A DNA stretch of 64,000 bases from Thermoleophilia bacterium (GCA_014859345.1 JACUUL010000001.1:2720-66719), one strand, 5' to 3'; shown: positions 12,037 through 49,861, counted from the stretch's first letter. Numbers and translations are program-made. Notes: generated from the sequence alone by a model not told the origin.

Positions 12037-12345
12037 GTGAAAGGTCGATCGCCCAGACCGGTAAAGGATTACTACCGCATCCTGCAGGTACACCCCGAAG
12101 CTTCTCCGGAGGTTATTGATCGCGCCTACAAGGCTCTGGCCCGCAAGTACCATCCGGATTCGTGGCCCGCAGAGAAGCAGAACTGGGCGAACATGAAGAT
12201 GCAGGAAATCAACGAAGCCCGGGCCGTACTCGGCAATCCCGCGCGCCGGGCAGAGTATGCCCGTTACCGGCGAACCGAATTCTGGCGGATTTTCTGGCGG
12301 GAAGGGCTTTCCGGCTTATCACGAAAGTGGGCCGGGAAGGGGTAA
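12037..12345 (+). CDS. J-domain (DnaJ-like) small protein
   Basis: DYYRILQVHPEASPEVIDRAYKALARKYHPD is a J-domain signature with HPD. 102 aa, GTG start. Confidence 0.5.
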   Translation: MKGRSPRPVKDYYRILQVHPEASPEVIDRAYKALARKYHPDSWPAEKQNWANMKMQEINEARAVLGNPARRAEYARYRRTEFWRIFWREGLSGLSRKWAGKG

Positions 12346-12377
12346 AAGCTTCCCCCATTCTGGTTTGACCGCGGGTA

Positions 12378-12848: not shown

Positions 12849-12880
12849 ATCATTAATCTGGAAGTTGTAATAGCGTCAGC

Positions 12881-18350: not shown

Positions 18351-18784
18351 TGTCTGCGGATAAACCCCTGCCTCGTCCCCGCAGGAAATCACGGGAGCCC
18401 GAAGGAGGGCTGCTGGCGGACAAGATGGCCAGGGCCATGGCAGAGGGCAGGTTTGATGAGTTTGTCGATAAAGAGCTGAAGGGAAACGAGGGCGCCCGCC
18501 GGCTAGCCGAATTGATGATGCATACCACGGGCATGGCTCCGCCCGCGGCCGGCAAGCAAAAGCGGAAGCAAACGCCTCGCAAAAAGATCCCGCCGGAGCA
18601 GAACGCCACCGGTAAAGAAAAAGTTGCGACCGGTGAGAAGCCGGGAGCCGCGGCCTCTCTGAAGCCGGGCGTAATGGAGGAGCTTTCCCGAATCGCCGCG
18701 GAAAATGGCGTTGAGGTGGACTGGATAATATCCAGGGCTCTAGGCCTTTATATCCGGGACCACCGGGCCACAGGCAGGCTTTAG
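18347..18784 (+). CDS. Hypothetical protein (basic, low-complexity middle; possible RHH-like C-terminus)
   Basis: 145 aa, overlaps the previous gene by 4 nt. No recognisable motif. Confidence 0.3.
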   Translation: MMSADKPLPRPRRKSREPEGGLLADKMARAMAEGRFDEFVDKELKGNEGARRLAELMMHTTGMAPPAAGKQKRKQTPRKKIPPEQNATGKEKVATGEKPGAAASLKPGVMEELSRIAAENGVEVDWIISRALGLYIRDHRATGRL

Positions 18785-18836: not shown

Positions 18837-19925
18837 TCAGGACGCCAGGAACTTCATGAACCTGTCGCGTATCTGTTCTGCGTCGAGAGGTATCTGCGAA
18901 ACTTTTCTGTCCCCTGCGCGCGCCGGCACGTGCAGGAAAAAAGGGCTTTCCGGCTTTTTCAGGGCGTCCAGGATTTCCTCAGCTGCCGCCGCTTTCCCGG
19001 TATGGCGAAAGCCCATGCCCCGGGCCAGCAGCTCCAGCTCGACGCAGCTGCCGGTCAGCGTCGGCTGTCCTCCGGTGGATCCGTAGGAGGCGTTGTCCAC
19101 CGCGATCACAAACAGGTTGCCGGGGTCCAGCATCGCGGCGGTGGCCAGGGTGCCCGGATTCATCAAAATGCTGCCGTCGCCTTCTATTACATAGATCTTT
19201 TTTGCTGTCGAAATGGCAAGTCCCAGACCGATCGCTGTCGCCATCCCCATGCTCCCCAGCATATAGAAATTTGAAGGCTGTTCGATGATCTCGTAGAGCT
19301 CTTTCGCTGGCACGCCGAGATTGCAGACCACCGCTTCGCCCCTGAGCGCCGGGGCAGCGGCCTCTATCACGGCGTAGCGGTCAAGCGCCGGTGCGGGAAT
19401 GTCCGCTATATCAAATGCTCCCGCTGAGACCTTGCAGGCGCGTCCGGAACTCTCACCCATGACCTCCGAACCTTCCCAGAGGACCGGGCTCATGAGGAAG
19501 AAATGTATGCTGCCCTCCGCGTATGCCCTATTGAGTTCTCCCGCAACCTTGCCCATGTCTTCGGCGGTGTGTAGTTCAGTCGAGTCCAGGCCCAGGGCAT
19601 CCAGAAGGCCGGGGAGCGCGCGGCCCATGGGAACCTGTGCGGCTATGCCCTCCTTGTACACACCCCGCCAGCTCACGAAAACAGCAAGCGGCAGGCCATA
19701 ATAAAAGTTGAGGGACATCAGGGCGTTTATCATGTTGCCGACGCCCGAGCTCTGGATCATCAAGGCGGGCCTTTTCCCGGCCAGGGCAGCTCCCGCCGCG
19801 ATGCCCATTCCCTCTTCTTCGCGGGTAAGCGGCACTCTCCGAAAATAGCTGTCGGAGAGAGTCAAAAGCCCCTTTATCCTGTCGCAGGGGAGGGTGCAGA
19901 GGAGATCGACTCCTCCGGCCCTCAT
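18837..19925 (-). CDS. Fused TPP-dependent sulfopyruvate decarboxylase (ComD-ComE like; alternatively phosphonopyruvate decarboxylase)
   Basis: 362 aa. The N-terminal half resembles ComD (GIAAGAALAGKRPALMIQSSGVGN). The C-terminal half carries a TPP-binding motif (VIEGDGSILMNPGTLATA) like ComE. No PEP mutase gene nearby, which favours sulfopyruvate. Confidence 0.6.
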   Translation of the reverse strand: MRAGGVDLLCTLPCDRIKGLLTLSDSYFRRVPLTREEEGMGIAAGAALAGKRPALMIQSSGVGNMINALMSLNFYYGLPLAVFVSWRGVYKEGIAAQVPMGRALPGLLDALGLDSTELHTAEDMGKVAGELNRAYAEGSIHFFLMSPVLWEGSEVMGESSGRACKVSAGAFDIADIPAPALDRYAVIEAAAPALRGEAVVCNLGVPAKELYEIIEQPSNFYMLGSMGMATAIGLGLAISTAKKIYVIEGDGSILMNPGTLATAAMLDPGNLFVIAVDNASYGSTGGQPTLTGSCVELELLARGMGFRHTGKAAAAEEILDALKKPESPFFLHVPARAGDRKVSQIPLDAEQIRDRFMKFLAS

Positions 19926-19930
19926 GGCCT

Positions 19931-21184
19931 TCAGGAATATCTCTTCAGGGTTTGGCAGAAAAGCTCCTCCAGTTCAGGATTGCTTATCTCTTTCGAAACC
20001 AGCTCGCCCTTGACCTTGCGGGCCTTCCTTTCCCTTTTGATGAGTTTCTCGCCCCCGCCTGTAATGTTGAGCAGGACCGGGTCTGTCTTTGGCAGCGAAC
20101 CAGCGGCCTTGACAAGCGACGCCACCGCCACAGCCGCGGCCGGAACTATATCCAGGCCTTCCGTTTCTTCAAACAGTTCTGCCGCCTCCCGGGCCTCCTC
20201 GTTGGTTATGCCGTAGAAATCACCGCCGCACGCCTCGAGCGCGTCGTATACGCCTCCCTGCACCGAGTAGGCCGGATACCGGGACGACAGTACCCGGGTG
20301 GAGATCATTTCTATCAACCTCGAGTCCAGATCCTTGGCAGCCAGTTCCCTCCTGTGATGCTTCCAGGCCCAGTACATGGGAGCGAAGGGCAGGTTCTGCG
20401 CCAGATGAAGCTGGGGAAGACTGTTGCCGAAACGCCCGTCCGCCAAAAACCTCTCAGCCATCTCCCAAGACGCGATCGCCCCGGCGCCGCTTCCTACCGC
20501 CTGGAAATAATGCGCCGGCAGCCTGCCCATCGCCGAAACTGCTTCCAGGAGCACCACCCCCAGGCCGTCCCGTTTGGCGACGTTCTTCACCCCTCCCTCA
20601 AATGGCATTCCGGAGACCCGGGCGACCCTTCCGGCCAGATCTATGGCATCGGAATAATCGCCGTCCTTGACCACCAGGGTAAGCACACCCGCGGAATCGG
20701 TGTGGTACCACATCTCCTTCCAGCACATGAAGGGGACAACTATAATCACCGGATAGCATGCCTTGGCGGACAGGTAAGCGAAAGATCTTGCGGTATTTCC
20801 GGCTGAGGCCACAACCAGCCCTTCCACGCCATTCTCCCTGGCATTCTCCATTACCACCGCTGCCTCGAACTCCTTGAACGTGCAGGTCTCCGTAAGCGCT
20901 CCTATTTCCGGGGTGTAACCCGTGTATGCAACATGGAGATCGTCAAGCCCGAGTGCCCGGGCAAGACCCTGTGAGCGGTATATCACCGGACCGGGCATTT
21001 TGAATGCCGGCTCGTGGACGGGCAGCCAGTTGAAGCGCCAAATGCCCGGGGCGCCGCTTTCGCGAAACAGCCTGTCGCGGTACTCGGTGACCAGCAGGGA
21101 ATTCGGGCAATGCTCGCAAAAGGCGCAATAGATCTCCTCAAGCGCCTTGCCGCATTTCCTGCATCTTATACGAAAATGGCTCAT
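19931..21184 (-). CDS. Threonine synthase-like PLP enzyme with N-terminal zinc ribbon; candidate cysteate synthase
   Basis: Real start ATG at 21184, forming an ATGA overlap with the HdrD-like stop. CRKCG...CAFCEHC zinc ribbon, TFKE PLP-lysine region, Gly-rich SAGNTARS. Adjacent ComDE-like gene supports a sulfonate (cysteate to sulfopyruvate to sulfoacetaldehyde) route. Confidence 0.5.
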   Translation of the reverse strand: MSHFRIRCRKCGKALEEIYCAFCEHCPNSLLVTEYRDRLFRESGAPGIWRFNWLPVHEPAFKMPGPVIYRSQGLARALGLDDLHVAYTGYTPEIGALTETCTFKEFEAAVVMENARENGVEGLVVASAGNTARSFAYLSAKACYPVIIVVPFMCWKEMWYHTDSAGVLTLVVKDGDYSDAIDLAGRVARVSGMPFEGGVKNVAKRDGLGVVLLEAVSAMGRLPAHYFQAVGSGAGAIASWEMAERFLADGRFGNSLPQLHLAQNLPFAPMYWAWKHHRRELAAKDLDSRLIEMISTRVLSSRYPAYSVQGGVYDALEACGGDFYGITNEEAREAAELFEETEGLDIVPAAAVAVASLVKAAGSLPKTDPVLLNITGGGEKLIKRERKARKVKGELVSKEISNPELEELFCQTLKRYS

Positions 21185-22383
21185 AAGCAGCCTGCCAGAA
21201 GTTCCATGATGTCCGTTATCCTGACCTGCTTTTCGTATCCCTCCATGGCCTCGTTCACCTTTGAATAGCACGCGGGACAGCTCAAAATGAACCTGTCCGC
21301 GTTCTTCTCCCAGGCCTCGTCTATAGCCAGCCTGCCAATTGCCACCGCATTCTCATGAAACACCTTCCGGGCTGCTCCCCCGGCTCCGCAGCATCGCGAA
21401 TCCCTGCGGTTCCGGTCGAACTCGAGGAGCTTAAGGCCCGGTATCGCCCTCAGGACCTCTCTGGGTTCCTCGATCACGCCCACCCCCCTGCTCAGGTAGC
21501 ATGGGTCGTGGTAGATAACCTTCCCGTTAAATCCACTTTTTAGCTTAAGCGTGCCTTCGGCCAAAGCCCGGCTGGCAAATTGCGTCATGTGCCTTATGCG
21601 GAAGGGTAGCTCCTTTCCCAAAAAGAGCGGCCATTCCCTGGCCATCATGTTCACGCAGCAGGGACAGGAACATATAAGTGTCTCGACCCCCTTATCCTGA
21701 TAAGCGGATACGAGCTGTTTGACAAGACCTTCCAGCAGATCGAACTGGCCGGTTATGAAAAGGGGAAAGCCGCAGCAGACCTCTTCCTCGGCGCCAAGCA
21801 TTGTAAACGGCTCTCCGGCAGCGGCCAGCACGAGCGCGTCTCCCCTTACCATGGGATGCGCTTCGTACGCCCCCGTGCATCCAACGTAGTATGCAATCTT
21901 CGCTTTCGCGACAGGCTCCACTCCCTCCGGGAACCAAGGCGAAAACCTCTCTGACGCCGGCTTGTCGTACACATTTCCCGTCTCCTTAACAAAACCGGGT
22001 ATCAATTTCTGTGGACCGATGGGGCCAAGGCCCCTCCTCACCATTTCGCGCCTCAGCATGGGCCATAGCCTCTGGGTGTAGATGCCTACCGGGCAGACTT
22101 CGCCGCACGCGCCGCAGGTTGTGCACTCGAAGATCGCCTTGGTGAACTCCTCGAGCAGCTCCTGGTTCACCCTTCGCCGGCCGAACAGCATGCCCTTGAG
22201 GCCCTGGGTCGACTTGATGAACTCCCTGAATATGCGTATCTTCTCACGGGGAGATACGGAAGCGTCGCCGGTCACATCCTGAACAGGACATTTCTTCAGG
22301 CATTCGCCGCACTGGGTGCAGGCGTCGATTTCGATCACCTGTTGACGCGAGAGGCAGCTGGTGAATGAGTCTTTCTTAATCAT
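21181..22383 (-). CDS. HdrD/DsrK/GlcF-family iron-sulfur protein (two 4Fe-4S ferredoxin motifs plus two CCG domains)
   Basis: CTQCGECLKKCPV and CTTCGACGEVCPV, then VCCGFPLF...CSCPCC and RCCGAGG...SCPAC (CCG-domain signatures). Confidence 0.7.
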   Translation of the reverse strand: MIKKDSFTSCLSRQQVIEIDACTQCGECLKKCPVQDVTGDASVSPREKIRIFREFIKSTQGLKGMLFGRRRVNQELLEEFTKAIFECTTCGACGEVCPVGIYTQRLWPMLRREMVRRGLGPIGPQKLIPGFVKETGNVYDKPASERFSPWFPEGVEPVAKAKIAYYVGCTGAYEAHPMVRGDALVLAAAGEPFTMLGAEEEVCCGFPLFITGQFDLLEGLVKQLVSAYQDKGVETLICSCPCCVNMMAREWPLFLGKELPFRIRHMTQFASRALAEGTLKLKSGFNGKVIYHDPCYLSRGVGVIEEPREVLRAIPGLKLLEFDRNRRDSRCCGAGGAARKVFHENAVAIGRLAIDEAWEKNADRFILSCPACYSKVNEAMEGYEKQVRITDIMELLAGCL

Positions 22384-23047
22384 GCAAGAGACCCTCGGTT
22401 TCCTCCTGCCTTCTTCTGGACTCGATCGTTGTGAAGGGAGCCGTGAAGATGTGGGTGGGCAGGAAGGCCAGAACGACGAATGCCAGCAGGAAATGCAGCG
22501 GGAAAAGCCAGTTTTGCGGCGGTGCGATTATCCGGAAGGAAAATATGCCCATCATGAAATTTTTCGCAGCTGTTATGTCGGCCCTGAAGTACTGGGCCAG
22601 AAACAGACCGGTGAGCCCCAGGAGCAGGATGGTGGCGGTGAGCATCAGGTTGTAGATGGAGCTGTACTTCATTCTTTCCCACACCAGCCGGTAAATCAGG
22701 ATATAGGCCAGCGAGGCGATCAGGGCCACGCCGGCATAAGGCTTGATTTGCGCCAGCACAATCATCCAGCGGGGGACGTCATAGAAGAAAAATCTCAGAT
22801 GGCCGAGAAAGACCAGAATGAACGAGATATGGAAAACCCATGATCCCGGCCATATGCCCGGATTGGCATTGAACAGCCTCCTGAGCAGGAAAATATCCAG
22901 TATCGCCAGCAGGATGGAGGAAATGGACTGCTTGCCACCAGGCGCCGGAGATCCATCTCCCCGGATGTAGATCAGAAACCGGACGGTTACGCCTACATAG
23001 AAAACGAGCAGCGCCGCATAAGCGACAATCGCCAGCAGAATGGCCAT
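22376..23047 (-). CDS. NarI/HdrE/DsrM-like membrane di-heme cytochrome b subunit
   Basis: 223 aa, 5 TM helices, His pairs in TM helices (FHISFILVFLGHL; PLHFLLAFVVLAFLPTH). Overlaps the downstream HdrD-like gene by 8 nt, as in hdrED/dsrMK pairs. Confidence 0.55.
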   Translation of the reverse strand: MAILLAIVAYAALLVFYVGVTVRFLIYIRGDGSPAPGGKQSISSILLAILDIFLLRRLFNANPGIWPGSWVFHISFILVFLGHLRFFFYDVPRWMIVLAQIKPYAGVALIASLAYILIYRLVWERMKYSSIYNLMLTATILLLGLTGLFLAQYFRADITAAKNFMMGIFSFRIIAPPQNWLFPLHFLLAFVVLAFLPTHIFTAPFTTIESRRRQEETEGLLHD

Positions 23048-23050
23048 CGC

Positions 23051-23389
23051 TCACCTTTCCAGCTCCAGGATTTCTTGCATGAACTCGATATGGGCGTCTT
23101 TCGGCAGGCGAAATCCGGCCTCCGCCTCCAGCGCCATCAATATCCCGGCCGGGACCGGACAGGACACGTGCTTTAAATGCCTGTCCGCGGCCCGGTAAAC
23201 CGGATTTTCCATGAACCTGACGAAGGCGTCCATACGGTTCAGCTCTTTAATGTCGCCGGCCATGCGGGTCACGTGCTCGCAGTCGCTCTTCATTTCAACG
23301 CTGTATGGCTCATTTTTGCCGCCGTTTCGTATGCGTACCCAGGTGATGAAACCGCAGGCCCCAGAGGTTATCCTGACGGAGGTGGTCAC
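23051..23389 (-). CDS. Hypothetical 112-aa protein, translationally coupled between RACE and HdrE-like genes
   Basis: 4-nt overlap with the RACE stop and a 3-nt gap to the HdrE-like start. Contains 4 Cys and 6 His. No known family recognised. Confidence 0.3.
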   Translation of the reverse strand: MTTSVRITSGACGFITWVRIRNGGKNEPYSVEMKSDCEHVTRMAGDIKELNRMDAFVRFMENPVYRAADRHLKHVSCPVPAGILMALEAEAGFRLPKDAHIEFMQEILELER

Positions 23390-25362
23390 CCTTTTACCGG
23401 CACGGCCGAGCCGGATTCCTCAAGCATTTTCTTTACATGAGGAAATTTGTCTTTCATGTGGGGTATATGCATGGCCTGTATGAACTCTTTCTCGAATTCC
23501 GGCTCCACTGCTATTTCCAAGTACTCGAGTTCTCTGGCCTGCTTCCTGGCCTCCAGCCGCTTGGTCCTGCTCAAAAGGGCCATTATGGCTCCATCGCCTG
23601 CGGCATTGCCCACCGCGTAAACCTTCTCCGGATCGCAATCAGGAAACATCCCCAGTGTCATCGCGGATTTCTTGTGTATGTAACTTCCAAAGGCCCCGGC
23701 CAGTATGACCTTTTCCACTTTCGCTATGCCCATTTTTTTCATCATCAGCTTGGCGCCGGTGTAAAGGGCCGCCTTGGCCAGCTGCAGCGCCCGGACGTCC
23801 GCCTGCGCGATGGTAATGTCTGTGCCAATAGATGTTTCCTTCGCCCAGGCCAGGACATATTCGAGTTTCCCGTCATGGTCCCGGCGAACTCTCTCCGTAT
23901 CCAGATCCTTGGCCATTCTTCCGGATTTGTCTATTATGCCTGCCTTGAACATCTCCGCCACTACATCGATTATCCCGGAGCCGCATATGCCCTTTGCCTC
24001 TATGTCGCCCTTGATTTCGGTATGCCATTCCTCTTTGCCAATTACTTTATACACGGGCTCCCTGGTCTGCGGGTCGATCTTCACTTTCTCTATGGCGCCG
24101 GGGGCGGCCCTCATGCCGAATTTTATCTGGGCTCCCTCAAATGCCGGACCCGTGGCGCAGGAAGTCGAGGAGAGATGTTCCTTGTTTCCGAGCAGGAGCT
24201 CGCCGTTCGTGCCAATGTCGATAATCAGAACCTTCTCTTTCATCCGGTACGGCTCCTCAGCAATGAGGACGCCCACGTTGTCCGCGCCCACGAAACCCGC
24301 CTCGATCGGCAGGACATGAACATAGGACGCATGGTTAATCCCTATATCCATATCCCGGGCCTTGATGTTAAGGTCGTTCTGCACCGCCGGGATGAAAGGC
24401 GCCAGGCCGATATACACCGGATTAAGGCCCAGGAATATATGGTGCATGGCTGTATTGAAGACTATTGTCATGTCCACTATCGACTGGCCGCCGGGCTTCG
24501 CGTCCATTTCGTAATTCGCTGTCAGCCTGCCGATCAGGTCGTTCAGGCCGTCTATCAAGGCCTTCTGCATGGTCTCGAGCCCGCCCTCGGTCATCATGGC
24601 GTAGGTGATCCGGGACATCACGTCCTCGCCGTAAGGAACCTGGGGATTCATCATCGACTCGGTTCTGACCACCTCGCCGGTTGTCAGCTCGCATAGGTAC
24701 GCGGCCACGGTAGTGGTCCCCACGTCCACCGCCAGCCCCAGGGAGGATTCCACGAAACCCGGTTCCACTTTCACTATCTCGGAATCCATCCATATGGAGA
24801 CTGTAATTTTCCAATCACCTTCCCTGATGACGTCCTGCAGGCCAGTAAGCACGGCATAGTCCATCGAGAGGCCCGTGAGGCCGTATTCCGCCTCGATCTC
24901 GGCTTTCAGCCTTTCCAGGTCACCCACGATAGTTTTTTCCAGAGTGGGTTTCTCCAGCTCCACGAAGTATTTCCTTACCGCCGGCTCAATAGGCACGGTC
25001 ACCTTCCGGGCCGTCTTTCTGACTATCTGCTTTCCGGCACGGGATTTCTCGGGAACGAAGAGCTTGACGTCTCCATGGAGCTCGGCGGCGCAGGCGAGCC
25101 TGATATTCTCACCGTCGGCGGGTTTTATGAACTTCTTTTCCCCATCCGTAATGGGACTCAGATTTGTCATCCGGGAATCAATATTGTCTTTCTCGAAATA
25201 ACCTTCATCCACCCGGACCTTGCATTTGCCGCAGGTTCCCTTGCCTCCGCATATGGATTCGAGATCCACTCCCAGTTGCTGCGCGGCCTCGATCAGGCTT
25301 TTTCCCTCTTCCACTTCGCCGCGCCGGCCCGAGGGCTGAAAAATTACCTTATGCTTGCGCAT
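23386..25362 (-). CDS. RACE-type reductive activator of corrinoid enzymes (2Fe-2S ferredoxin plus ASKHA ATPase domain; RamA/RACo-like)
   Basis: 658 aa. N-terminal plant-type ferredoxin (CGGKGTCGKCKV) followed by a large ASKHA/DUF4445-type ATPase domain. Confidence 0.8.
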   Translation of the reverse strand: MRKHKVIFQPSGRRGEVEEGKSLIEAAQQLGVDLESICGGKGTCGKCKVRVDEGYFEKDNIDSRMTNLSPITDGEKKFIKPADGENIRLACAAELHGDVKLFVPEKSRAGKQIVRKTARKVTVPIEPAVRKYFVELEKPTLEKTIVGDLERLKAEIEAEYGLTGLSMDYAVLTGLQDVIREGDWKITVSIWMDSEIVKVEPGFVESSLGLAVDVGTTTVAAYLCELTTGEVVRTESMMNPQVPYGEDVMSRITYAMMTEGGLETMQKALIDGLNDLIGRLTANYEMDAKPGGQSIVDMTIVFNTAMHHIFLGLNPVYIGLAPFIPAVQNDLNIKARDMDIGINHASYVHVLPIEAGFVGADNVGVLIAEEPYRMKEKVLIIDIGTNGELLLGNKEHLSSTSCATGPAFEGAQIKFGMRAAPGAIEKVKIDPQTREPVYKVIGKEEWHTEIKGDIEAKGICGSGIIDVVAEMFKAGIIDKSGRMAKDLDTERVRRDHDGKLEYVLAWAKETSIGTDITIAQADVRALQLAKAALYTGAKLMMKKMGIAKVEKVILAGAFGSYIHKKSAMTLGMFPDCDPEKVYAVGNAAGDGAIMALLSRTKRLEARKQARELEYLEIAVEPEFEKEFIQAMHIPHMKDKFPHVKKMLEESGSAVPVKG

Positions 25363-25582
25363 CTCTCTTCCTCCATGAAGTTTCGGATATCCCTTTAATC
25401 ACTGTTGCCGTAATCATCATCCTGAGGGATAAATGAGGGGACGGTTACCCCCGACTGCCGGATTACCGGCCGTCCTGTAACCGAAGCAGATGGTAAAAAT
25501 GCGGGGCAAACTTACCGACCGTCCCCCAATCGCGCCAATGGGGAGGTGGCGATATCCGATGTCACGTTTAACTCTGTTTCCT

Positions 25583-26266
25583 CTATTCGGCCTCTGCCTC
25601 TTGTTTAAGCCTTTTGAGAGAGCTGACCATGTCTATGGCGTCCTTGAGCGCGTTGCTGGCGTCGGCCGCGTATCCGTCTGCGCCCCACTTGTCGGCTATG
25701 TCCTGTGACGCCGGGGCGCCGCCTATCATTATTATACAATCTGGGTTCTTCTCCTTGAGATCATGGATAACCTTCTCCATGCCCGACATGGTCGTCGTCA
25801 TCATGGCGGACAGGCAAACAAGATCCGAATCCGTCCGGAGCTGCTCTTCAACGAACTTGTCGAGGGGCACGTCCCTGCCCAGGTCATAGACCGTGAAGCC
25901 GGCCACGTCGAACATCATCTTGACTATGTTTTTGCCGATATCGTGGACGTCTCCTTCCACCGTGCCGATTACCACCGACCCCCTGACACCCAGATCCAGC
26001 TGTTCGACATGGGGCCTGAGAATATCCAGCCCGGCATACAGGGCATCCGCGCACATCAGCAGCTCGGGGACGAAATATTCCTCCTCCTCGAAAAGCCTGC
26101 CGACTTCCTCCATGCCGGTCACCAGTCCGTCGAATATCGCGTCATTGGCCTTGAGGCCCTCGTCCAGCGCTATCTGCGCCCACTCCCTGGCTGTGTCCTC
26201 GTCGTACTCGATAACGGCGTTTTTGAGATTTTCCAGTATTTCCTGTTTCCGTTCTTCCGTAGCCAT
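25583..26266 (-). CDS. Corrinoid (cobalamin-binding) protein, MtaC/MtbC-like
   Basis: 227 aa. B12-binding DxHxxG motif (GDVHDIGKNIV) and N-terminal helical cap domain. Confidence 0.8.
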   Translation of the reverse strand: MATEERKQEILENLKNAVIEYDEDTAREWAQIALDEGLKANDAIFDGLVTGMEEVGRLFEEEEYFVPELLMCADALYAGLDILRPHVEQLDLGVRGSVVIGTVEGDVHDIGKNIVKMMFDVAGFTVYDLGRDVPLDKFVEEQLRTDSDLVCLSAMMTTTMSGMEKVIHDLKEKNPDCIIMIGGAPASQDIADKWGADGYAADASNALKDAIDMVSSLKRLKQEAEAE

Positions 26267-26270
26267 TAGC

Positions 26271-27320
26271 TCACCTCGCGTAGTTTCTAACCGCGTCCAT
26301 CATCGCCTCGAAGTTCCGGGGCGGAACCGTGGGCCATATATCACAGCCCGGCCACACGGCGCTGACCCCGTCGTCCAGGCATTTATTTATCGTTTGCTCC
26401 ACCAGTTCCGGAGTGCCGGATACCAAAACGTTGAACGGGTCGTAATTTCCGAATACCAGGGCATCGGGACCAAGCTCCTCCCTGGTCTTGATTATTTCGT
26501 TTCTCTGGTCCACGCTGATCGCATCGGCCCCGGCTTCCACCATGGCGCCGACTATCGGGTTTGTCTTGCCGCAGATATGGTTTACGCTGGGCACCGTGAT
26601 TTCAGCAAATATCTTCTTCAGGTTGGGCAGAATCAGTTTCTTGAAGATCCGGGGGCTAAGCACATCCGAAGTCGCCCCCATCTCCCTGACGGTAAGGTAG
26701 TCGATGCCCGCTTTTTCGTACCGCTTTAGCACCGCTATGATGACATCAGCCAGCTTGTCGAGCAGCGCCTCCACCTTGTCGGGCTTCTTGAATGAGAGCT
26801 TGAGGAGGTCGTTGAGCTCCATAATCTGTCCTGCCAGGGTAAACGGGCCCAGCACATAGCTCCCGACCGGCACCTCACCCTTGAGTTCCTCCTTGGCCAG
26901 CCCTATCGCTTCGCACACAAGGGGAACCCGGCCCTTCTCGGCCACATCGGCCGGCATGGAGAGATCCATTTCATCTTCGCTATGGATGACCTTCTCCTTG
27001 ATCGTGGGGTAAAACAGGTCCTCCGTGTGGGCATAGGTGTTTATCTCGCATCCGATGGCCTCGGCCTCGACGCAAAGATCAAACGGCACCACGGCGCAGT
27101 CGAACCCGAAGAGTTTCGGAGTGGAAACGGCCGCTTCGGCCATCTGCCGGCTATCCAGGTGCACTTCAGCGAACTTGTAGCCCAGCTTCTCGAGTCCGGC
27201 GGTGGTCACGTTGCCCAGGCCGCTGAAGCAGGCCGGCCTGTCCGTCTTCTCGCCAGCAAACACGCTGGCGACCCTTTCTTTGGCGGTCATCGTCTTAAGC
27301 TCCTGTTCTTTCCTGTTCAT
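26271..27320 (-). CDS. MtaA/CmuA-family (UroD-fold) zinc methyltransferase 1
   Basis: 349 aa. UroD-family N-terminus, zinc ligand motif VNHICGKT and downstream PGCDIWP, as in methylcobamide:thiol methyltransferases. Confidence 0.75.
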   Translation of the reverse strand: MNRKEQELKTMTAKERVASVFAGEKTDRPACFSGLGNVTTAGLEKLGYKFAEVHLDSRQMAEAAVSTPKLFGFDCAVVPFDLCVEAEAIGCEINTYAHTEDLFYPTIKEKVIHSEDEMDLSMPADVAEKGRVPLVCEAIGLAKEELKGEVPVGSYVLGPFTLAGQIMELNDLLKLSFKKPDKVEALLDKLADVIIAVLKRYEKAGIDYLTVREMGATSDVLSPRIFKKLILPNLKKIFAEITVPSVNHICGKTNPIVGAMVEAGADAISVDQRNEIIKTREELGPDALVFGNYDPFNVLVSGTPELVEQTINKCLDDGVSAVWPGCDIWPTVPPRNFEAMMDAVRNYAR

Positions 27321-27326
27321 GTTTTT

Positions 27327-28289
27327 TCACTTTTTTGCCTTGGCTTTCCGGCCCCCACCGGCTTCGAGTTTCTCAATGAAGTCAGGGAAATATTTCCGCA
27401 GGGGCAGATCCGGGTTATCCGGTATCTGCCCGGTCTCATCGTACACCAGGGTGGAAAGCAGTACGTGGGCGGTCGCCACGGCCGGAAATATCCTGGGCGC
27501 CGTCACTATTGGGCCGTAAAGATTGAAGTCGCTCCACAGGGCGGTTGACATTCCCTGCGCCACCGCGTCCATTGCCCTGAAGCCTTCCTGCCCCCAGGCA
27601 TCTTTCGCTTCTTGCCACATATGTGTCCCGTTCGAGTACGCCGCGCCGCAGGGGTAGCCGAGCTCCTCCTTTATCATCTTGTTGGCAAGCAACGAAAAGG
27701 ACGTGGACGGCAGATTCATGACAGAGGTGTCCACGATTACGGTATCGAAGGCGTCCGCTCCCTGCTCGAGTATGCTCTTCAGGGATTTCAGCCTGCCCTT
27801 GGGAGACTGGTCCTCGTCATCGAACGCCTGGATTATGACGTGTTTGATTCCAAGGTTCTTGAGGGTTTCGACCTGTCCCCTTATATCCTTGTCCCAGGCA
27901 GTGATGCTGTTGTAAAGAAACTTGTCCTGGGCCCCGATCTCGGCGACGTACTCAGTGGCTTTTGCGCGTTTTTTGGGAACCCACATATCGATGCCGAAAG
28001 GCATGTCAGTCGTTTCGGTATAGAAATCTATGTAAATCCTGGCTTCATCCGGAGAATTAGCCACCATGGCGACCATGGCGGGTATGCCGGTGGCCCGGGA
28101 GAGTTCTTCCTGTTTCCTGATTAGATCAACGGCTTTTTCCCGGTCGAAGTCTCCTTTTCTGTCACGCAGTATCCTGTCTTTGTTATGGAACATCGATGCG
28201 ATCAGCAACGGCGGGTTGTCGCCGGGCTGCCCGCCGATCTTTATCCCGTCAAACTCAAAGACTTTCTGCGGAGTCGCAAACCTGAACAT
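27327..28289 (-). CDS. MtrH-like (pterin-binding) methyltransferase, probable methylcorrinoid:tetrahydrofolate methyltransferase
   Basis: MtrH-family similarity begins at MFRFATPQKVFEFDGIKIGGQPGDNPPLLIASMF (ATG at 28289). The longer track ORF would overlap the AhpD-like gene, so the internal start is used. Confidence 0.65.
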   Translation of the reverse strand: MFRFATPQKVFEFDGIKIGGQPGDNPPLLIASMFHNKDRILRDRKGDFDREKAVDLIRKQEELSRATGIPAMVAMVANSPDEARIYIDFYTETTDMPFGIDMWVPKKRAKATEYVAEIGAQDKFLYNSITAWDKDIRGQVETLKNLGIKHVIIQAFDDEDQSPKGRLKSLKSILEQGADAFDTVIVDTSVMNLPSTSFSLLANKMIKEELGYPCGAAYSNGTHMWQEAKDAWGQEGFRAMDAVAQGMSTALWSDFNLYGPIVTAPRIFPAVATAHVLLSTLVYDETGQIPDNPDLPLRKYFPDFIEKLEAGGGRKAKAKK

Positions 28290-28350
28290 CACCTCTCCTT
28301 GGATATTCTCAGGCCGGCGGAGGGAATTCCCTCCGCCGGTCTTTTTTGCC

Positions 28351-28950
28351 CTAGTAGATCCCGTGGTCCCATTTCGGCTCGGGGAGATACTCCCACGGTT
28401 CGCCTTTGCGATGCTTGGCCTCGATGTCGAGGCATTTGACCGCGTATTCGAATGCGTACGGTATGCCCGGACCGCCAGGTACAAAGCCGGCCAGAATCAT
28501 CCCCACGGACGCCGCCTCGAATATTTCCTCGGTGGTCGCTCCCGCTTCTATGGCCGGAACCACGTGAATGATGCACCGGGGAGAGCAATAGGAAACGCCG
28601 CCGGCCATGAACATCAGTTCCTTGATCTTTTTCGAAAGGGCGCCGTCGCCGAACACGCTGGCGTAGAAATCGGCGAAGGTCTTGCCCGGCACCGGCGTTA
28701 CCGTGTTGATCGTCTGGAACATCCTGGGCGTGAAGCCCATGACGTTTTTCATGTATTCGTTGCATTCCTCCGGCGACATCGCCGCGCATTCTTCCATCGT
28801 CATCGCTTTCATGCTGCTCTCAGCCATTTCTGCTCCTTTCTCGCTTTCGTCCCCGCCCTCCCGCTTCGAAGTGGAGGCGAAAAATTTTTTAAGTTCGTCC
28901 CAGAAATTCATCTCTTCGGCTCCTCTCCCGGCTTTTATAAGCCAGAACAC
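28351..28950 (-). CDS. Carboxymuconolactone decarboxylase/AhpD-like family protein
   Basis: CSPRCIIHV (CxxCxxxH AhpD-core motif). Confidence 0.55.
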   Translation of the reverse strand: MFWLIKAGRGAEEMNFWDELKKFFASTSKREGGDESEKGAEMAESSMKAMTMEECAAMSPEECNEYMKNVMGFTPRMFQTINTVTPVPGKTFADFYASVFGDGALSKKIKELMFMAGGVSYCSPRCIIHVVPAIEAGATTEEIFEAASVGMILAGFVPGGPGIPYAFEYAVKCLDIEAKHRKGEPWEYLPEPKWDHGIY

Positions 28951-28989
28951 CCAGCAGCTTTTCCCCTAAGTCATCGCACCTCCTCCCAC

Positions 28990-30018
28990 CTAAAGCTTCC
29001 ATTCTCTCGCCGTCCGGATGAATGCCTCAATGTTCTCGTAAGGCACGGTTGGCGGTATATCGCAGCCAGGCATCAACACAAACCCTCCGTCCGTCCCCGC
29101 CGTCTCGATTATCCGGCGCGAAACCTCTTCCACCTGCGCCGGGCTTCCCTGGTCCATGACGGCCACAGGATCAATATTGCCGCCGAAGCACATTTTCCCG
29201 TGCAGCGTCTCCTTCGCCTTGGCGATATCAGTCTTGTGGTCCAGGCTTATGCAGCTTGCCCCCGTATCGACCATCAGGTCAAGCCTGTCGGTGGTGTTCC
29301 CGCATATATGCACCAGGGTGTGCCTGTCATGCTGCTTTGCCCAATCGGTGAACTTTTTAAGGTATGGCAGGGCGAATTCCCGAAACTGTTTTTTGGAGAT
29401 GAGGTCTCCCGAAGCGGTTGGGTCTGCCAGCGAGATGACTTCGAGCGTCCCGTCCCGCACCAGGGGCTCGAATAAATGGATAAGAAGGCCGGTAGTGAAA
29501 TCTGCCATTTTGTGAACGAAGTCCGGCCGTTTGAAGGTGGCCTTCATCATGGTCTCTTCGCCCACAAACCGGGCGGCCAGAGTATATGGACCCCAGGCGG
29601 TCATCGTCACAACATATTCGTCTCCAATCTTCTTTTTGGTCTCCCTGAGGGCTTCTTTGACTGTATTTATCACCTCGTTCCTGTCCAGAGCCGAGTAGTC
29701 CAGTTTATCGATATCCTCGGCAGTGTCGACCAGGTGCTCCTTTAGATCGGGAGCGCCCATCTCTCGGTACTTTATCCCCCCGCCAAACGCCGAAGCGTGA
29801 AAGTTGTTATAACCCGAGCCCGCGTACACGATGTCACAGAGGAGCTTCCCCGACGTAGTAACCAGCATGTCTGTCATCTTCCCCACATCGGTCGCCAGTT
29901 CCTCGAAGGAGGTGCCAAAATTTCTGATGCTCCACATGCCTGCCCCGAACAGGGTGACCGGCACCCTCTCGGTCTTCTTGCCCTCATAAGCATCCAGGAT
30001 AATCTGTTTTGGTGTCAT
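28990..30018 (-). CDS. MtaA/CmuA-family (UroD-fold) zinc methyltransferase 2
   Basis: 342 aa. VHICGNTT and PGCDIPP zinc-ligand motifs. Paralog of 26271..27320 but clearly divergent. Confidence 0.75.
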   Translation of the reverse strand: MTPKQIILDAYEGKKTERVPVTLFGAGMWSIRNFGTSFEELATDVGKMTDMLVTTSGKLLCDIVYAGSGYNNFHASAFGGGIKYREMGAPDLKEHLVDTAEDIDKLDYSALDRNEVINTVKEALRETKKKIGDEYVVTMTAWGPYTLAARFVGEETMMKATFKRPDFVHKMADFTTGLLIHLFEPLVRDGTLEVISLADPTASGDLISKKQFREFALPYLKKFTDWAKQHDRHTLVHICGNTTDRLDLMVDTGASCISLDHKTDIAKAKETLHGKMCFGGNIDPVAVMDQGSPAQVEEVSRRIIETAGTDGGFVLMPGCDIPPTVPYENIEAFIRTAREWKL

Positions 30019-30511
30019 GCCCCTTCCCTTTCGTATTTTCTTAAATGCCTAAGGACCGATTTCCTCAAAACCGGACCCTCAGGGGACCAACAGCGAACGA
30101 AGGAACAATTGGAGCGGCGTCTTTTATGCAGTGTCTCCGGGCTCGTTTTTGTTAATCTCTGATTGTCATATATTCTATCTTATCTGAAGGTCGTATCGGG
30201 TCGCAGTCCGGCTACATCCTGCTTCATTGCCGAGAAACAAAAGCCCAGGAAACTGTCTGGTGTTATCAACTGGCAATGGCGAAGGCCACCCCCCTCCACG
30301 GGCCGTCATCACTGCCTGACCTCTTTCCCCCATACGGTAGAGGTCAAACCGTTCGCCGCGGATATCATGTTCATCGCGAACAATCCGCGCTTTGTCGTGA
30401 AGGGCGTGGCGATGCGCCTGCCTTAACGTTCAAAAACCAGTTCTTCGCTGAGGAGTCTATCCTACGATCTTTTCCAAACTCAAGGCCGGAGTTGACCGGA
30501 TGATCGTTATG

Positions 30512-30922
30512 TCAAAAACAGAGGGTTCCCCTGGCCTGAGAAGCGAGGTCAATGAGGCTCATGGCTCCGGCGGGCGTAGCTTCGGGAATCAGGCCTTCGG
30601 GAGCTATATTCTTGTTCGCCATGGTCTGCGTGCAGCACTGGATTTCGACGCCCATGTCGATCGCTTCATAAAGCCTTTGGCCGATTGTCGGCATGCCCTG
30701 CGCCTCTTTTTCATGCTTCTCGACGGAGCCCTTTGCCATGACATCCACCGCTTCCTGGATGCAGTACAGAATGGATCGGCAATTCGCGGCGGCCGCCAGC
30801 GAGGCGAACATGAGAGCCGAGCGCACGCGAGCCGGGTTTTCGAATCCGGACGCGCACACTACTATGAACAGATTGTCGACTTCCGCGCCTTTTGGATCTG
30901 TTTGCTGACGAACTTTCAGCAT
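30512..30922 (-). CDS. DsrE/DsrF/TusD-like sulfur-relay family protein
   Basis: Start at internal ATG (MLKVRQ...). IVVCASGFENP conserved-Cys region typical of the DsrE family, about 135 aa. Confidence 0.4.
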   Translation of the reverse strand: MLKVRQQTDPKGAEVDNLFIVVCASGFENPARVRSALMFASLAAAANCRSILYCIQEAVDVMAKGSVEKHEKEAQGMPTIGQRLYEAIDMGVEIQCCTQTMANKNIAPEGLIPEATPAGAMSLIDLASQARGTLCF

Positions 30923-30923
30923 G

Positions 30924-31454
30924 TCAGACCGTTTCCAGCTCGGCATGCAACGCGACAGGCCTGGAGAGCGTCACTCCCACAGGCGACGTGGCGAGCACAT
31001 GTTTATGAAGTTCTTCCAGCGTCTCTTTATCCGCATCAGACTTTATCTTCACGTTGGCTGTGATGTTCTTGAACCCCGGGAGCTTGTCCATGCTGAGGCT
31101 CTCGGGCGGTTCCAGCCCCAGGAAGCCCGGCAGGTCAATCTCGCCCTCGAGGTTGATGCTGATATCCTCGATGTTGATATTCCTGACCGCGGCGTTCATG
31201 GCGTAACCGATCGTCAGGCATGCTCCATAGGCCTGAAGCACCATCTCGACCGGGTTTGCCGCCATGTTTGTCCCGCACAGCATCTCGGGCTCATCAGCCA
31301 GGAGCGTGAAGTCGCGCGAGCACGTCTCGACCTGGAATCCGCCTTTCCACGACGTCGATGCTTTCCAGACCGTCCTGCCCGTATCCCAGTTCTCCTTGAC
31401 CGTCTCAACAACCTTTATCAGGTCCTCGGTTTCCAGTCCGTTTACTACAGGCAT
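30924..31454 (-). CDS. OsmC/Ohr-family peroxiredoxin-like protein
   Basis: Start at internal ATG (MPVVNGL). Two conserved Cys (ETCSRD...LCGTN ... GACLTIGY) as in OsmC. Confidence 0.5.
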   Translation of the reverse strand: MPVVNGLETEDLIKVVETVKENWDTGRTVWKASTSWKGGFQVETCSRDFTLLADEPEMLCGTNMAANPVEMVLQAYGACLTIGYAMNAAVRNINIEDISINLEGEIDLPGFLGLEPPESLSMDKLPGFKNITANVKIKSDADKETLEELHKHVLATSPVGVTLSRPVALHAELETV

Positions 31455-31659
31455 CGCAAATCCTCCTATTTTGTTGTTACCGCAGTTATAGTATAACAAT
31501 AGTTCAGTTTAGGAGCCACGTTTTCACCCTTGCCCCTGTCTCCATGATGGTCAAACAGTCAGTTATGACCCGGAATAATGCCCCGTTTACGATCCGGAAG
31601 ATCGTTCCCGGCCCATGATTTTCTGATACCCGGGATTCTCCATCATAAACCCGGTTTGA

Positions 31660-32430
31660 TCAAAGAGCCGCCGCTGCCGCCAGCAAAGCGGCCACTCTGC
31701 CGGTCTCGACCGAGGCTCCCAGTAAATCGCCGTTGGCTCCTCCGAACCAGCGTCTGCCCGCCGCCGCCAGCAAAATGGCCACTGCCAGCGCCCCTGCCCC
31801 GCAAACCAGCGGGATTAAGATGCCCAGCGGAATGGCCAGCAGCGCGAGAAGGATCAGGACAATCGCCGATGCCGCCATTCCCCGCCATCCTTTCGATCCG
31901 GCGATGAAGACGCTGCCGCTGCCCTTGTGAGAGGGCCGGCTGAACATGGCCAGGGCGAAAAGGGAGAATCGCGCTGAGAGTTCAACCGACATCATCAGCC
32001 ATGGCCAGTGGCGCTCTTCGATTCCGGGCAGCGCTTCTGAAAGCGCCGCCCAGGATACAAGGTAGACAAGCAGCAGTGCCGCGATGGCGCCGATGCCCAT
32101 GGTGCGATCCTTAAGCACCGCCAGGCGCCGCGACCGGGAGCCGCCGGCCATGACCGCGTCGCCCACGTCGGCCAGGCCGTCAGCGTGATGGAGGCCGGTG
32201 AGGAGCAGGGCCAGCGCCAAAATTATCGCCGCCACAACCTGCGCTTCAAACAGCCCCGAAAGGCCCCAGCCGGCCAGACCCTCGACTCCGCCCAGAAAAA
32301 CGGCCACCAGCGGCAGCAAGAAGGCGGCCCGGGTGACTTCTTCGATGCCGCCGGCGCGGGCCAGGGGGAGAATCGTGAAAAAACCGAAAGCCAGGCGCAG
32401 CTGTCTCACGGAAACGTCCTCATTTCGCAA
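31660..32430 (-). CDS. cobS: Adenosylcobinamide-GDP ribazoletransferase (cobalamin synthase)
   Basis: 256 aa polytopic membrane protein. LAFGFFTILP N-terminal motif. Confidence 0.8.
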   Translation of the reverse strand: MRNEDVSVRQLRLAFGFFTILPLARAGGIEEVTRAAFLLPLVAVFLGGVEGLAGWGLSGLFEAQVVAAIILALALLLTGLHHADGLADVGDAVMAGGSRSRRLAVLKDRTMGIGAIAALLLVYLVSWAALSEALPGIEERHWPWLMMSVELSARFSLFALAMFSRPSHKGSGSVFIAGSKGWRGMAASAIVLILLALLAIPLGILIPLVCGAGALAVAILLAAAGRRWFGGANGDLLGASVETGRVAALLAAAAAL

Positions 32431-49800: not shown

Positions 49801-49861
49801 TGCAGCTATAATGACTGATTTTGGAAGTATACGGGCAGGCGAGAGGTTTTTCAAGAATGCT

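Follow-up and report, generated by a model that had tools for sequence, protein, structure and literature searches.

Open reading frames (ORFs) in a 64,000-nucleotide stretch of a metagenome-assembled genome (MAG) labeled by NCBI as Thermoleophilia bacterium (GCA_014859345.1 JACUUL010000001.1:2720-66719) were compared with Pfam and NCBIfam profiles, which delimited a corrinoid methyl-transfer operon of approximately 12.7 kb on the minus strand (18837 to 31499; all positions are those of the whole stretch, hereafter the window). The 5′ half of this operon (25583 to 31499) had been flagged by a model working from the sequence alone (the sequence-only reading) as a module that holds a corrinoid protein with a DxHxxG motif, two divergent MtaA/CmuA-type methyltransferases with zinc ligands, an MtrH-like pterin methyltransferase, and AhpD-, DsrE-, and OsmC-like proteins. 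All of the genes it named were recovered at their positions, each on the minus strand, and their family assignments were borne out by the profile searches and alignments described below. Its claim that a substrate-specific methyltransferase (MT-I) of the MtaB, MttB, or MtmB type is missing also held, as none was found among the large window ORFs scanned, which included all ORFs of at least 400 amino acids (aa); a 517-aa ORF at 2955 to 4508, among the ORFs of this size, matched no family. The module boundary at 25583 proved to cut the unit, as six further conserved, codirectional genes (RACo, DUF6951, cytochrome b, HdrD, CysS, and ComDE) lie below it and extend to 18837. Genes in the operon are tightly packed, with gaps or overlaps of no more than about 60 nucleotides, apart from two intergenic gaps, one of which separates the corrinoid protein from RACo (220 bp; 25363 to 25582); downstream of it, genes overlap or are a few bases apart. 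The features of the operon are as follows, in the direction of transcription.

30924-31499, minus strand, OsmC-like two-cysteine protein, conserved part from about 31454 (PF02566, 60 bits)
30512-30946, minus strand, DsrE-like protein, overlapping the end of the OsmC gene (PF02635, 44 bits)
30019-30511, minus strand, intergenic gap of 493 bp
28990-30018, minus strand, UroD1, divergent MtaA/CmuA-like zinc methyltransferase (PF01208, 211 bits over the whole model)
28351-28950, minus strand, CMD/AhpD-like protein, likely true start at about 28827 (PF02627, 27.5 bits)
28311-28342, no strand, perfect inverted repeat of 14 bp, GC rich, with a GAATTC center, between the CMD stop codon and the MtrH ribosome-binding site
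27327-28289, minus strand, MtrH-family methyl-corrinoid:pterin methyltransferase (PF02007, 184 bits)
26271-27290, minus strand, UroD2, MtaA/CmuA-family zinc methyltransferase, 339 aa from the NCBI start, with a longer ORF to 27320 (PF01208, 252 bits over the whole model)
25583-26266, minus strand, corrinoid methyl-carrier protein (PF02310, B12-binding, and PF02607, B12-binding_2)
23386-25362, minus strand, RACo/RamA-type ATP-dependent reductive activase (Fer2, RACo_linker, Raco_middle, and RACo_C_ter, 330 bits)
23051-23389, minus strand, DUF6951 small protein, overlapping the RACo stop codon (PF22263, 96 bits)
22376-23047, minus strand, membrane b-type cytochrome of the NarI/DsrM/HdrE type, 223 aa (weak DsrM match, 49 bits)
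21181-22383, minus strand, HdrD-like iron-sulfur protein (PF02754 in two stretches, 88 bits, and Fer4_8)
19931-21187, minus strand, cysteate synthase CysS (TIGR03844 equivalog, 468.5 bits against a cutoff of 324.9)
18837-19925, minus strand, fused sulfopyruvate decarboxylase, ComDE-like and thiamine pyrophosphate dependent (TIGR03845, alpha, 169.1 bits against a cutoff of 147.95)

Relatives of the operon were drawn from two samples, consisting of 80 GTDB species loci retrieved with UroD2 and 80 metagenome loci retrieved independently with CysS, and neighborhoods of ±10 kb around each match were examined. The corrinoid protein contains the motif GDVHDIGKN, of which D-x-H-x-x-G was invariant in 78 orthologues. 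It scored slightly under the TIGR02370 cutoff (201 versus 215 bits), and its relatives in the PDB were methyltransferase corrinoid proteins. The activase, which was present in 67 loci, had an AcsV-like NCBIfam match of 486 bits. The MtrH-family protein scored above the cutoff of NF002142 (343.9 versus 287 bits) and below those of the equivalogs for true MtrH (TIGR01114, 167 versus 271 bits) and MtgA (161 versus 550 bits); its PDB matches included 8z9u_B (190 bits), 6sj8 (138 bits), which is the D. hafniense methylcorrinoid:tetrahydrofolate (THF) methyltransferase, and MtrH of the Mtr complex (9qtp, 130 bits). No other Mtr subunits turned up among the scanned window ORFs or the conserved neighbors. 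The predicted pterin substrate of this enzyme is most likely THF, because the hosts are bacteria, because the cluster includes FolD and MetF genes in approximately 12 GTDB relatives each (and FolD also in 6 metagenome loci), and because the protein resembles 6sj8.

The two UroD proteins share 28% identity. UroD2, which is 100% identical to a protein deposited as “MAG: Thermoleophilia bacterium” and has its deposited start 10 codons inside a 349-aa ORF (27290 versus 27320), exceeded the family cutoffs of TIGR01463 (238.6 versus 235.4 bits) and NF004889 (PRK06252; 256.8 versus 244 bits). Neither protein reached the equivalog cutoff for MtaA (239 bits for UroD2 and 146 bits for UroD1, versus 400) or for MtbA (177 and 160 bits for the two proteins, versus 600), and identity to MtaA of M. 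mazei (4AY7) was 29% over the full length of UroD2 and 32% over the C-terminal 219 residues of UroD1. The His-x-Cys…Cys residues in the motifs HICGNT and PGCDIPP of UroD1 and HICGKTN and PGCDIWP of UroD2 align with the zinc ligands of 4AY7 (LHICGN and PGCGI), so that the ligands are present in both proteins, and they were invariant in 64 orthologues of UroD1 (H237, C239, and C319) and in 81 orthologues of UroD2 (H, C, and C). In O-demethylating UroD enzymes, one Cys ligand or both are replaced by a carboxylate or a nonligand residue (PMC10418091). The soft His-Cys-Cys site predicted here is typical of sulfur and selenium methyltransferases and indicates sulfur (or selenium) chemistry rather than O-demethylation. 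By the same published criterion (PMC10418091), the likeness to bacterial O-demethylases drawn in the sequence-only reading is disfavored, and a role as an O-demethylase MT-I was rejected on the invariance of both Cys ligands in UroD1 and UroD2. HemE, a candidate prompted by the cob operon in the neighborhood, was rejected on the TIGR01464 scores (92 and 70 bits versus a cutoff of 303), on the presence of the zinc ligands, and on the finding of no cob genes beside the cluster in any relative.

Cysteate synthase converts O-phosphoserine and sulfite to L-cysteate. Besides its equivalog-level profile match, CysS showed 43% identity over 392 aa to a solved “Cysteate synthase” (9k3c, 313 bits), compared with at most 68 bits to NCBIfam threonine synthase models and approximately 44 bits to solved threonine synthases. 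The ComDE-like protein was narrowly under the cutoff of the beta-subunit model (TIGR03846, 206.7 versus 221.5 bits) and far under that of the phosphonopyruvate decarboxylase model (194.6 versus 312.5 bits). In M. acetivorans, cs and comDE are adjacent (MA3297-MA3298), and starvation for coenzyme M (CoM) coinduces ssuBC, cs, comDE, and hdr (PMC11844431); by analogy, this gene set resembles the accessory content of the present cluster, in which SsuA- and SsuC-type ABC transporter genes were found in 16 and 9 relatives, respectively.

The HdrD-like protein, of approximately 400 aa, has two [4Fe-4S] motifs and two CCG domains, which were conserved in 43 orthologues. Its best NCBIfam match was thiol:fumarate reductase TfrB (176 bits, under the cutoff), and its orthologues carry the JGI label “heterodisulfide reductase subunit D.” The adjacent cytochrome b is predicted to be of the diheme type, with four His residues conserved at ≥95% in 30 orthologues; a related form of 269 aa in 11 relatives matched PF02665. 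No genes for methyl-CoM reductase (MCR) or for the coenzyme B (CoB) pathway were seen at the loci. In the DUF6951 protein, residues C12, C37, H74, and C77 were invariant in 59 orthologues; its AlphaFold2 model was unusable (predicted local distance difference test, 53), and a word-indexed search gave four homologues.

Among the putative thiol or peroxide proteins of the cluster, the CMD protein is encoded between UroD1 and MtrH in 70 of 81 loci. It has the motif YCSPRCIIH, in which the His and the second Cys were invariant and the first Cys was found in 61 of 68 orthologues. The CMD/AhpD-like protein had weak NCBIfam matches to AhpD domains linked or fused to selenium-linked or arsenite methyltransferases, and the OsmC-like protein matched NF041052, “OsmC-related (seleno)protein” (53 bits); these matches, with E values of 1e-5 to 1e-7, were all under the cutoffs. 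Cysteines in MLCG and GACL of the OsmC-like protein and the CC of QCCTQ in the DsrE-like protein were invariant in 11 orthologues each, and a DsrE-like cysteine is a possible sulfur carrier. OsmC (26 of 81 loci) and DsrE (10 of 81) were the least constant members of the cluster, and a pair 75 to 80% identical to that of the window lies a few kilobases upstream, in divergent orientation, in about 10 relatives. A second OsmC-like paralogue (25 to 33% identity to that of the window) is codirectional and approximately 1 kb upstream of UroD1 in about 20 GTDB loci (such as L050 at 6560 and L062 at 6039), and the family therefore recurs with the cluster in two forms.

The codirectional order UroD1-CMD-MtrH-UroD2-corrinoid protein-RACo-DUF6951-(cytochrome b)-HdrD-CysS-ComDE was kept in the 80 GTDB species wherever the contig was long enough. 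In the metagenome loci, ComDE followed CysS in 52 of 52 cases and HdrD directly preceded CysS in 43 of 46; where 10 kb of upstream sequence was available, the methyltransferase block lay upstream of CysS in nearly all loci, and CysS and ComDE were almost never found without it. Because this order recurs in both samples, the arrangement is far beyond chance. MtrH was present in 76 of 81 loci. Conservation and constancy were highest in the methyltransferase core (65 to 85% identity across phyla), and horizontal transfer of the operon between bacterial phyla is inferred from these protein identities. The nearest orthologues were 83 to 85% identical, and the bulk, at 65 to 77%, came from Nitrospirota/Thermodesulfovibrionales; hosts were mostly Thermodesulfovibrionia-type (Nitrospirota) anaerobes, with a few relatives labeled “Candidatus Sulfotelmatobacter,” Rokubacteriota, or Betaproteobacteria. 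The cluster was abundant in metagenomes from groundwater, peat, wetlands, and the subsurface.

Gene content around this shared order varied among the relatives. An iron-sulfur protein of 207 to 219 aa with a Fer4_16 domain lies between the corrinoid protein and RACo in 68 of the 80 GTDB relatives (for example, at 11707 to 12366 in L054 and 11726 to 12349 in L082), and its N-terminal part, judged by eye, is similar to QueG/RdhA; in the window and in L084, the closest relative, its place is taken by a bare gap of 220 to 300 bp. A small receiver-like gene directly upstream of UroD1 in 55 relatives left no trace in the window by tblastn. Also absent from the window were a divergent CobW-family GTPase, found in 28 relatives, which would fit zinc enzymes, and the sigma-54 regulators found near the cluster in 26 relatives. 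The window cluster likewise has no FolD, MetF, or internal SsuA- and SsuC-type genes. In one locus (L122, 4000 to 14500), CysS-ComDE stands alone, with MsrAB, an ABC1 kinase, and a helicase upstream; in another (L143, 7627 to 8595), an IS200-like transposase directly precedes HdrD. A locus with the Rokubacteriota label (L007, 3524 to 6300) has a second, divergent pair of corrinoid protein and RACo upstream, at 52 to 54% identity.

Collectively, the predicted products make up a complete corrinoid methyl-transfer set, namely, a putative carrier, an activase, a pterin-side methyltransferase, and two zinc-thiolate-type methyltransferases. This set is genetically locked to the CysS/ComDE pair and the HdrD/cytochrome b pair. 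We give about even chances to the interpretation that the operon exchanges methyl groups between THF and a thiol, most probably CoM made by the cluster itself, and that the HdrDE-like complex serves this thiol. CoM is favored as the thiol because the cluster would unite three independent modules whose joint occurrence is otherwise a feature of methanogens, namely, an MtaA-family enzyme, a cs-comDE pair, and an HdrDE-like pair. Our confidence in the broader claim, that of THF-linked corrinoid methyl transfer to or from sulfur or selenium, is much higher.

In the proposed mechanism, the corrinoid carrier would be kept active by the RACo-type ATP-dependent activase and coupled to THF by the MtrH-family enzyme. 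CysS and ComDE would provide sulfoacetaldehyde, which would be thiolated to CoM either by sulfide chemistry or with the aid of the HdrD-like, cytochrome b, and DUF6951 proteins or of the DsrE-, AhpD-, and OsmC-like proteins. UroD2, the more MtaA-like enzyme, would methylate or demethylate CoM, and UroD1 may act on a second thiol or a methyl-thioether. The HdrDE-like complex would connect a CoM-containing disulfide with the quinone pool and in this way either keep CoM reduced or help to finish its synthesis through reductive thiolation of sulfoacetaldehyde. By analogy with Mtr, transfer of a methyl group from a methyl-thioether to THF is uphill by about 30 kJ/mol, and by analogy with Mtr and methionine synthase the reverse reaction yields about −30 kJ/mol. 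On this analogy, and since the soluble system appears uncoupled, it would be expected to run from methyl-THF to the thiol and would then correspond, as a soluble system of bacteria that works without MCR, to the Mtr/MtaA step of methanogens. The sequence-only reading had proposed that methyl groups are funneled to THF; THF stands as the most likely pterin (from FolD, MetF, and 6sj8), and the direction toward THF is not obvious on energetic grounds. Its suggestion of a methylated-sulfur substrate or a thiol acceptor stands in the second part, with which the cluster fits well, and not for an external methyl-sulfur compound alone, as the CysS, ComDE, and HdrDE-like genes point to self-made CoM. 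The distribution of the cluster suggests that many nonmethanogenic bacteria make and methylate CoM. A wider statement, to which we give somewhat less than even chances, is that hundreds of uncultured anaerobic bacteria, mainly Nitrospirota/Thermodesulfovibrionia and also MAGs with Rokubacteriota, Acidobacteriota, and Thermoleophilia labels, synthesize CoM by the archaeal phosphoserine route and use it as a soluble THF:CoM methyl carrier with an HdrDE-like, quinone-linked reductase.

Several observations weigh against CoM as the thiol. Bacterial cysteate synthases also serve sulfonolipid synthesis. UroD1 fell under the family cutoffs that UroD2 exceeded (TIGR01463, 188.6 versus 235.4 bits; NF004889, 177 versus 244 bits) and, on these scores, is best called MtaA-like and not an MtaA/CmuA family member. 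R70 of MtaA, which we take to contribute to CoM binding, corresponds to Val, Ile, or Leu in all 81 UroD2 orthologues, and UroD2 therefore does not appear to copy the thiol pocket of MtaA. This residue is among six thiol-pocket residues described for MtaA (PMC13618148); at the pocket positions, UroD2 keeps T28 and L75 and has T, V, and Y in place of Q29, R70, and Q94. The sole PDB match of the HdrD-like protein was the quinone-linked mycobacterial EtfD (9ojn), and CCG/cytochrome b proteins include quinone-linked enzymes other than disulfide reductases. No CoM synthase of the MMP16/ComF/COG1900 type was found among the conserved neighbors of the approximately 160 loci (neighborhoods only), nor was an aminotransferase found in or near any of them, and for this reason the formation of CoM from sulfoacetaldehyde is putative here; sulfide can yield CoM from sulfoacetaldehyde without MMP16 (PMC11844431). 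No methyl-CoM-consuming enzyme is encoded in the cluster, so that a catalytic cycle cannot be closed. The CoM interpretation is drawn wholly from sequence and gene context.

Other interpretations of the operon were weighed against the same observations. In one of these, which we regard as unlikely, external methylated sulfur compounds (dimethyl sulfide [DMS], methanethiol, methylmercaptopropionate, or perhaps methyl-CoM) are catabolized, with one or both UroD proteins acting as MT-I in the manner of MtsA and MtpA; the MtrH-family enzyme would transfer the methyl group to THF, MetF and FolD would oxidize it, electrons would go to sulfate or sulfite, and the CoM-type genes would be accessory or would supply a thiol side acceptor. 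The Thermodesulfovibrionia-type hosts and the presence of MetF and FolD inside the cluster of some relatives, as in methylotrophic clusters, are consistent with such catabolism, and we know of no described pathway of DMS or methanethiol oxidation in sulfate reducers, which was counted in its favor. The soft zinc site (by the criterion of PMC10418091) and the lack of an MtaB/MttB-type MT-I among the scanned window ORFs are consistent with it as well. It leaves the linkage of CysS and ComDE (52/52 and 43/46) unexplained, and no conserved transporter for volatile or acidic methyl-sulfur compounds accompanies the cluster. The transfer would also be uphill by about 30 kJ/mol, by analogy with Mtr, with no evident energy-coupling device. 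The same zinc site is shared with type 1 mlp clusters, and salvage or detoxification of methylated selenium or sulfur compounds of that kind, in which the UroD proteins would act on selenide, methylselenol, or sulfide and the AhpD-, OsmC-, and DsrE-like proteins would handle reactive chalcogen, is quite improbable. The combination of at least two MtaA-like proteins, a corrinoid protein, and a RACE/RACo activase matches that description, and ClMlp2 of those clusters methylated selenide (PMC10418091). Also in its favor, the CMD and OsmC proteins matched no NCBIfam entries other than “(seleno)protein” families and AhpD domains that are fused to selenium-linked or arsenite methyltransferases; these are the same weak, under-cutoff matches noted above. 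Type 1 clusters are, however, defined partly by the lack of a THF methyltransferase, whereas MtrH is nearly constant here (76/81), and Nitrospirota, MtrH, and cysteate are not mentioned in their description (PMC10418091). Furthermore, selA, selB, and selD were not among the conserved neighbors, and CysS, ComDE, and HdrD are left without a function.

A very improbable reading is dehalogenating methyl transfer from halomethanes (CH3Cl, CH3Br, or CH2Cl2) of the cmu/mec type, with a UroD protein in the place of CmuA/MecE, the MtrH-family protein in that of MecF/CmuB, and oxidation via MetF and FolD. Such a reaction would be thermodynamically favorable, samples of groundwater, peat, and the subsurface contain the cluster, and some relatives have MetF and FolD with it, a feature of cmu clusters too. 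The core that it shares with the mec cassette consists of an MtaA/CmuA-family enzyme, MtrH, a corrinoid protein, and RACo, but mec proteins are without homologues of >35% identity outside known degraders (bioRxiv 10.1101/2021.08.30.458270). Set against published descriptions, no MecC-, MecI-, MecG-, or MecJ-like genes were recognized among the conserved neighbors; the strict His-Cys-Cys site with AhpD- and DsrE-type partners points to thiol chemistry, and the CoM-type genes and the HdrD-like pair would be unexplained. In a further reading, CoM, or another sulfoacetaldehyde derivative, would be mainly a redox thiol for the OsmC- and AhpD-like peroxidase-type proteins and would be regenerated by the HdrDE-like complex, with the methyltransferases merely colocated or modulating the thiol pool by S-methylation. 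OsmC-, AhpD-, and DsrE-like proteins are indeed present in or near the cluster together with the HdrD/cytochrome b pair, and raised CoM protects methanogens against oxidative stress (PMC12713407). This explanation is nevertheless extremely improbable, because it is the methyltransferase core that is most constant (65 to 85% identity) and OsmC and DsrE that are least so (26/81 and 10/81), and because CysS and ComDE are almost never found apart from the methyltransferase block.

Noncoding features of the operon and its flanks were also inspected. The 493-bp gap at 30019 to 30511 presumably holds the promoter of the methyltransferase block. An Rfam scan of both intergenic gaps returned no riboswitch or other element (for the 493-bp gap, none at an E value of ≤1), and a promoter and terminator scan of the locus gave signal at background only and was uninformative. 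The inverted repeat at 28311 to 28342 has no T-tail on the coding strand, and for that reason, as predicted from the sequence, it probably represents a stem-loop in the mRNA of the operon rather than a terminator. Two genes downstream of the operon are convergent with it.

18347-18784, plus strand, conserved convergent gene of 145 aa (ORF; homologous to a family of about 200 aa without a Pfam match)
17403-18350, plus strand, NMT1/SsuA-like protein of the sulfonate-binding type, with no evident signal peptide (PF13379 and PF09084)

The family of the 145-aa protein lies downstream of ComDE in 19 of 33 loci, and its C terminus, judged by eye, is possibly that of a ribbon-helix-helix regulator. 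The NMT1/SsuA-like protein scored 90 bits against TIGR01728 (SsuA family), under the cutoff, and its gene is likewise convergent in L082 to L084 and in 11 of 33 loci. The two genes may form a sulfonate-sensing regulator pair, to judge from these family matches; they also accompany the stand-alone CysS-ComDE locus L122. Farther along, a gene for a membrane protein without a family match (14928 to 15653, plus strand) precedes one for a protein of 556 aa that has three GAF domains (15654 to 17324, plus strand); as PAS/GAF histidine kinases and sigma-54 regulators are encoded close to the cluster in relatives, these two may be the local regulators. The left flank at 11269 to 14248 encodes an Rrf2 regulator, a PCYCGC-motif protein (PF13798), and a 455-aa membrane Fer4_5 (NapH-like) protein. 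B12-related neighbors, a B12-binding radical SAM protein and the adenosylcobalamin-dependent ribonucleotide reductase NrdJ, lie within 6474 to 7925 and 8740 to 10851, an adjacency found in no relative.

Directly upstream of the operon is a full anaerobic cob operon (including CobS at 31660 to 32430, CbiJ, CbiGH, CbiD, CbiC/X, CobQ, and CbiB), ahead of which lies a cobalamin riboswitch (49643 to 49812), the sole riboswitch found. The position of the module directly downstream of cob genes, as given in the sequence-only reading, is therefore correct for this genome and peculiar to it, CobS being beside the cluster in 0 of 80 relatives. GC content was 0.50 to 0.62 in the left 20 kb, 0.55 to 0.57 in the cluster, 0.63 to 0.68 in the cob operon, and 0.59 to 0.63 on the right side, with a step at approximately 31.6 to 32 kb, where the cluster meets the cob operon. 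As evidence of a genomic island, GC content was unconvincing, as the left flank (0.54 to 0.62) overlaps the cluster.

CoM is known from methanogens and alkane-oxidizing archaea, where it is the alkyl carrier for MCR, and from a few aerobic alkene-oxidizing bacteria, where it is made by another pathway and acts as an epoxide nucleophile. If the THF:CoM interpretation is true, CoM would have a third biological role, in which the methyl-transfer and thiol-recycling half of methanogenesis operates without MCR; in anoxic habitats, the cluster would be a bacterial source of CoM and methyl-CoM, and it would offer a natural model of the soluble “Mtr bypass” that has long been sought. Bacteria would then hold a methanogen-like methyl-CoM branch, and views on how CoM-auxotrophic methanogens obtain CoM and on how methyl-thioethers cycle in anoxic sediments would need revision. 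With CoM as the thiol, a non-COG1900 alternative for the last step of CoM synthesis would become testable, as would a soluble methyl-pterin/methyl-CoM route with a defined five-protein system. Should the thiol be another compound, the cluster would still represent a widespread, uncharacterized pathway of THF-linked S-methyl transfer in sulfur-cycling bacteria.

Searches of the full-text-searchable literature returned no description of this cluster. With MtaA, MtbA, MtsA, and MtpA of methanogens, the cluster shares the UroD fold, the His-x-Cys…Cys site, a separate DxHxxG carrier, and an ATP-dependent activase, and the MtsA and MtpA systems likewise need no MtaB/MttB-type MT-I. It differs from MtaA-type systems in its low identity (29 to 32%, with no equivalog cutoff reached), its bacterial hosts, the presence of MtrH in the same operon, and the hydrophobic residue at the R70 position. 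As in the Mtr complex and the putative cytoplasmic “Mtr bypass” of Methanosarcina, methyl groups would pass here from a methyl-pterin via a corrinoid to CoM, and an MtrH-family protein would perform the pterin half-reaction; unlike the Mtr complex, the cluster has no MtrA-G membrane subunits or Na+ coupling, its carrier is soluble and MtaC-like, its pterin is probably THF, and its MtrH-family protein is well under the MtrH equivalog cutoff (167 versus 271 bits). The equivalog-level cysteate synthase followed by a fused ComDE recalls class II (phosphoserine) CoM biosynthesis in Methanosarcinales and Methanomicrobiales, with the same adjacency as MA3297-MA3298, whereas here an MMP16/COG1900 homologue is missing from the neighborhoods, the HdrD-like/cytochrome b genes and DUF6951 precede the pair, and the genes are bacterial. 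In current reviews of CoM biosynthesis, the phosphoserine route is assigned to methanogens (PMC9457059; PMC11844431). HdrDE and the related DsrMK, TfrB, and EtfD/EMO share with the present pair a subunit of about 400 aa with two iron-sulfur motifs and two CCG domains beside a cytochrome b with four conserved His residues; it departs from HdrDE in that no CoB pathway or MCR was seen at the loci to account for CoM-S-S-CoB, menaquinone rather than methanophenazine is expected, and the closest solved relative is EtfD.

Among bacterial systems, the type 1 mlp clusters of Kountz and Balskus (PMC10418091) are alike in their nonmethanogen hosts, several His-Cys-Cys MtaA-like proteins, corrinoid protein, RACE activase, and association with sulfur and selenium genes, but they contain no THF methyltransferase, CoM biosynthesis, or HdrD genes and are found mostly in Firmicutes, and the present cluster is not mentioned in that study. 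The mec cassette of anaerobic dichloromethane degradation and the cmu system also combine an MtaA/CmuA enzyme, an MtrH-type protein, a corrinoid protein, and RACo to feed THF, and they occur in the same kinds of anoxic habitat, whereas the present cluster is without the other Mec proteins (by description) or a halide link and has sulfur- and CoM-type genes in addition. MtvABC, MtoABCD, and MtgABC follow the same three-component logic, with an MtrH-family second methyltransferase acting on THF or tetrahydromethanopterin, and D. hafniense MtgA (6sj8) was matched here; however, the zinc ligands of the O-demethylase MT-I are carboxylates or absent, MtgB is of the MttB type, and neither fits the cluster. 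Xanthobacter Py2 (xcbA-E) offers a precedent for bacterial CoM biosynthesis genes beside CoM-using catabolic enzymes (PMC9457059), although CoM is there made from phosphoenolpyruvate via XcbA-E and serves as an epoxide nucleophile, not a methyl carrier, in aerobic hosts. The parts of the present cluster are of known families, and its kind, a three-component corrinoid methyltransferase system, is known as well. The nearest published systems are the type 1 mlp clusters, the mec/cmu cassettes, and the MtaA/Mtr/HdrDE machinery of methanogens; what is new is the combination of a corrinoid core, class II CoM biosynthesis genes, and an HdrDE-like complex in bacteria without sign of MCR at the loci.

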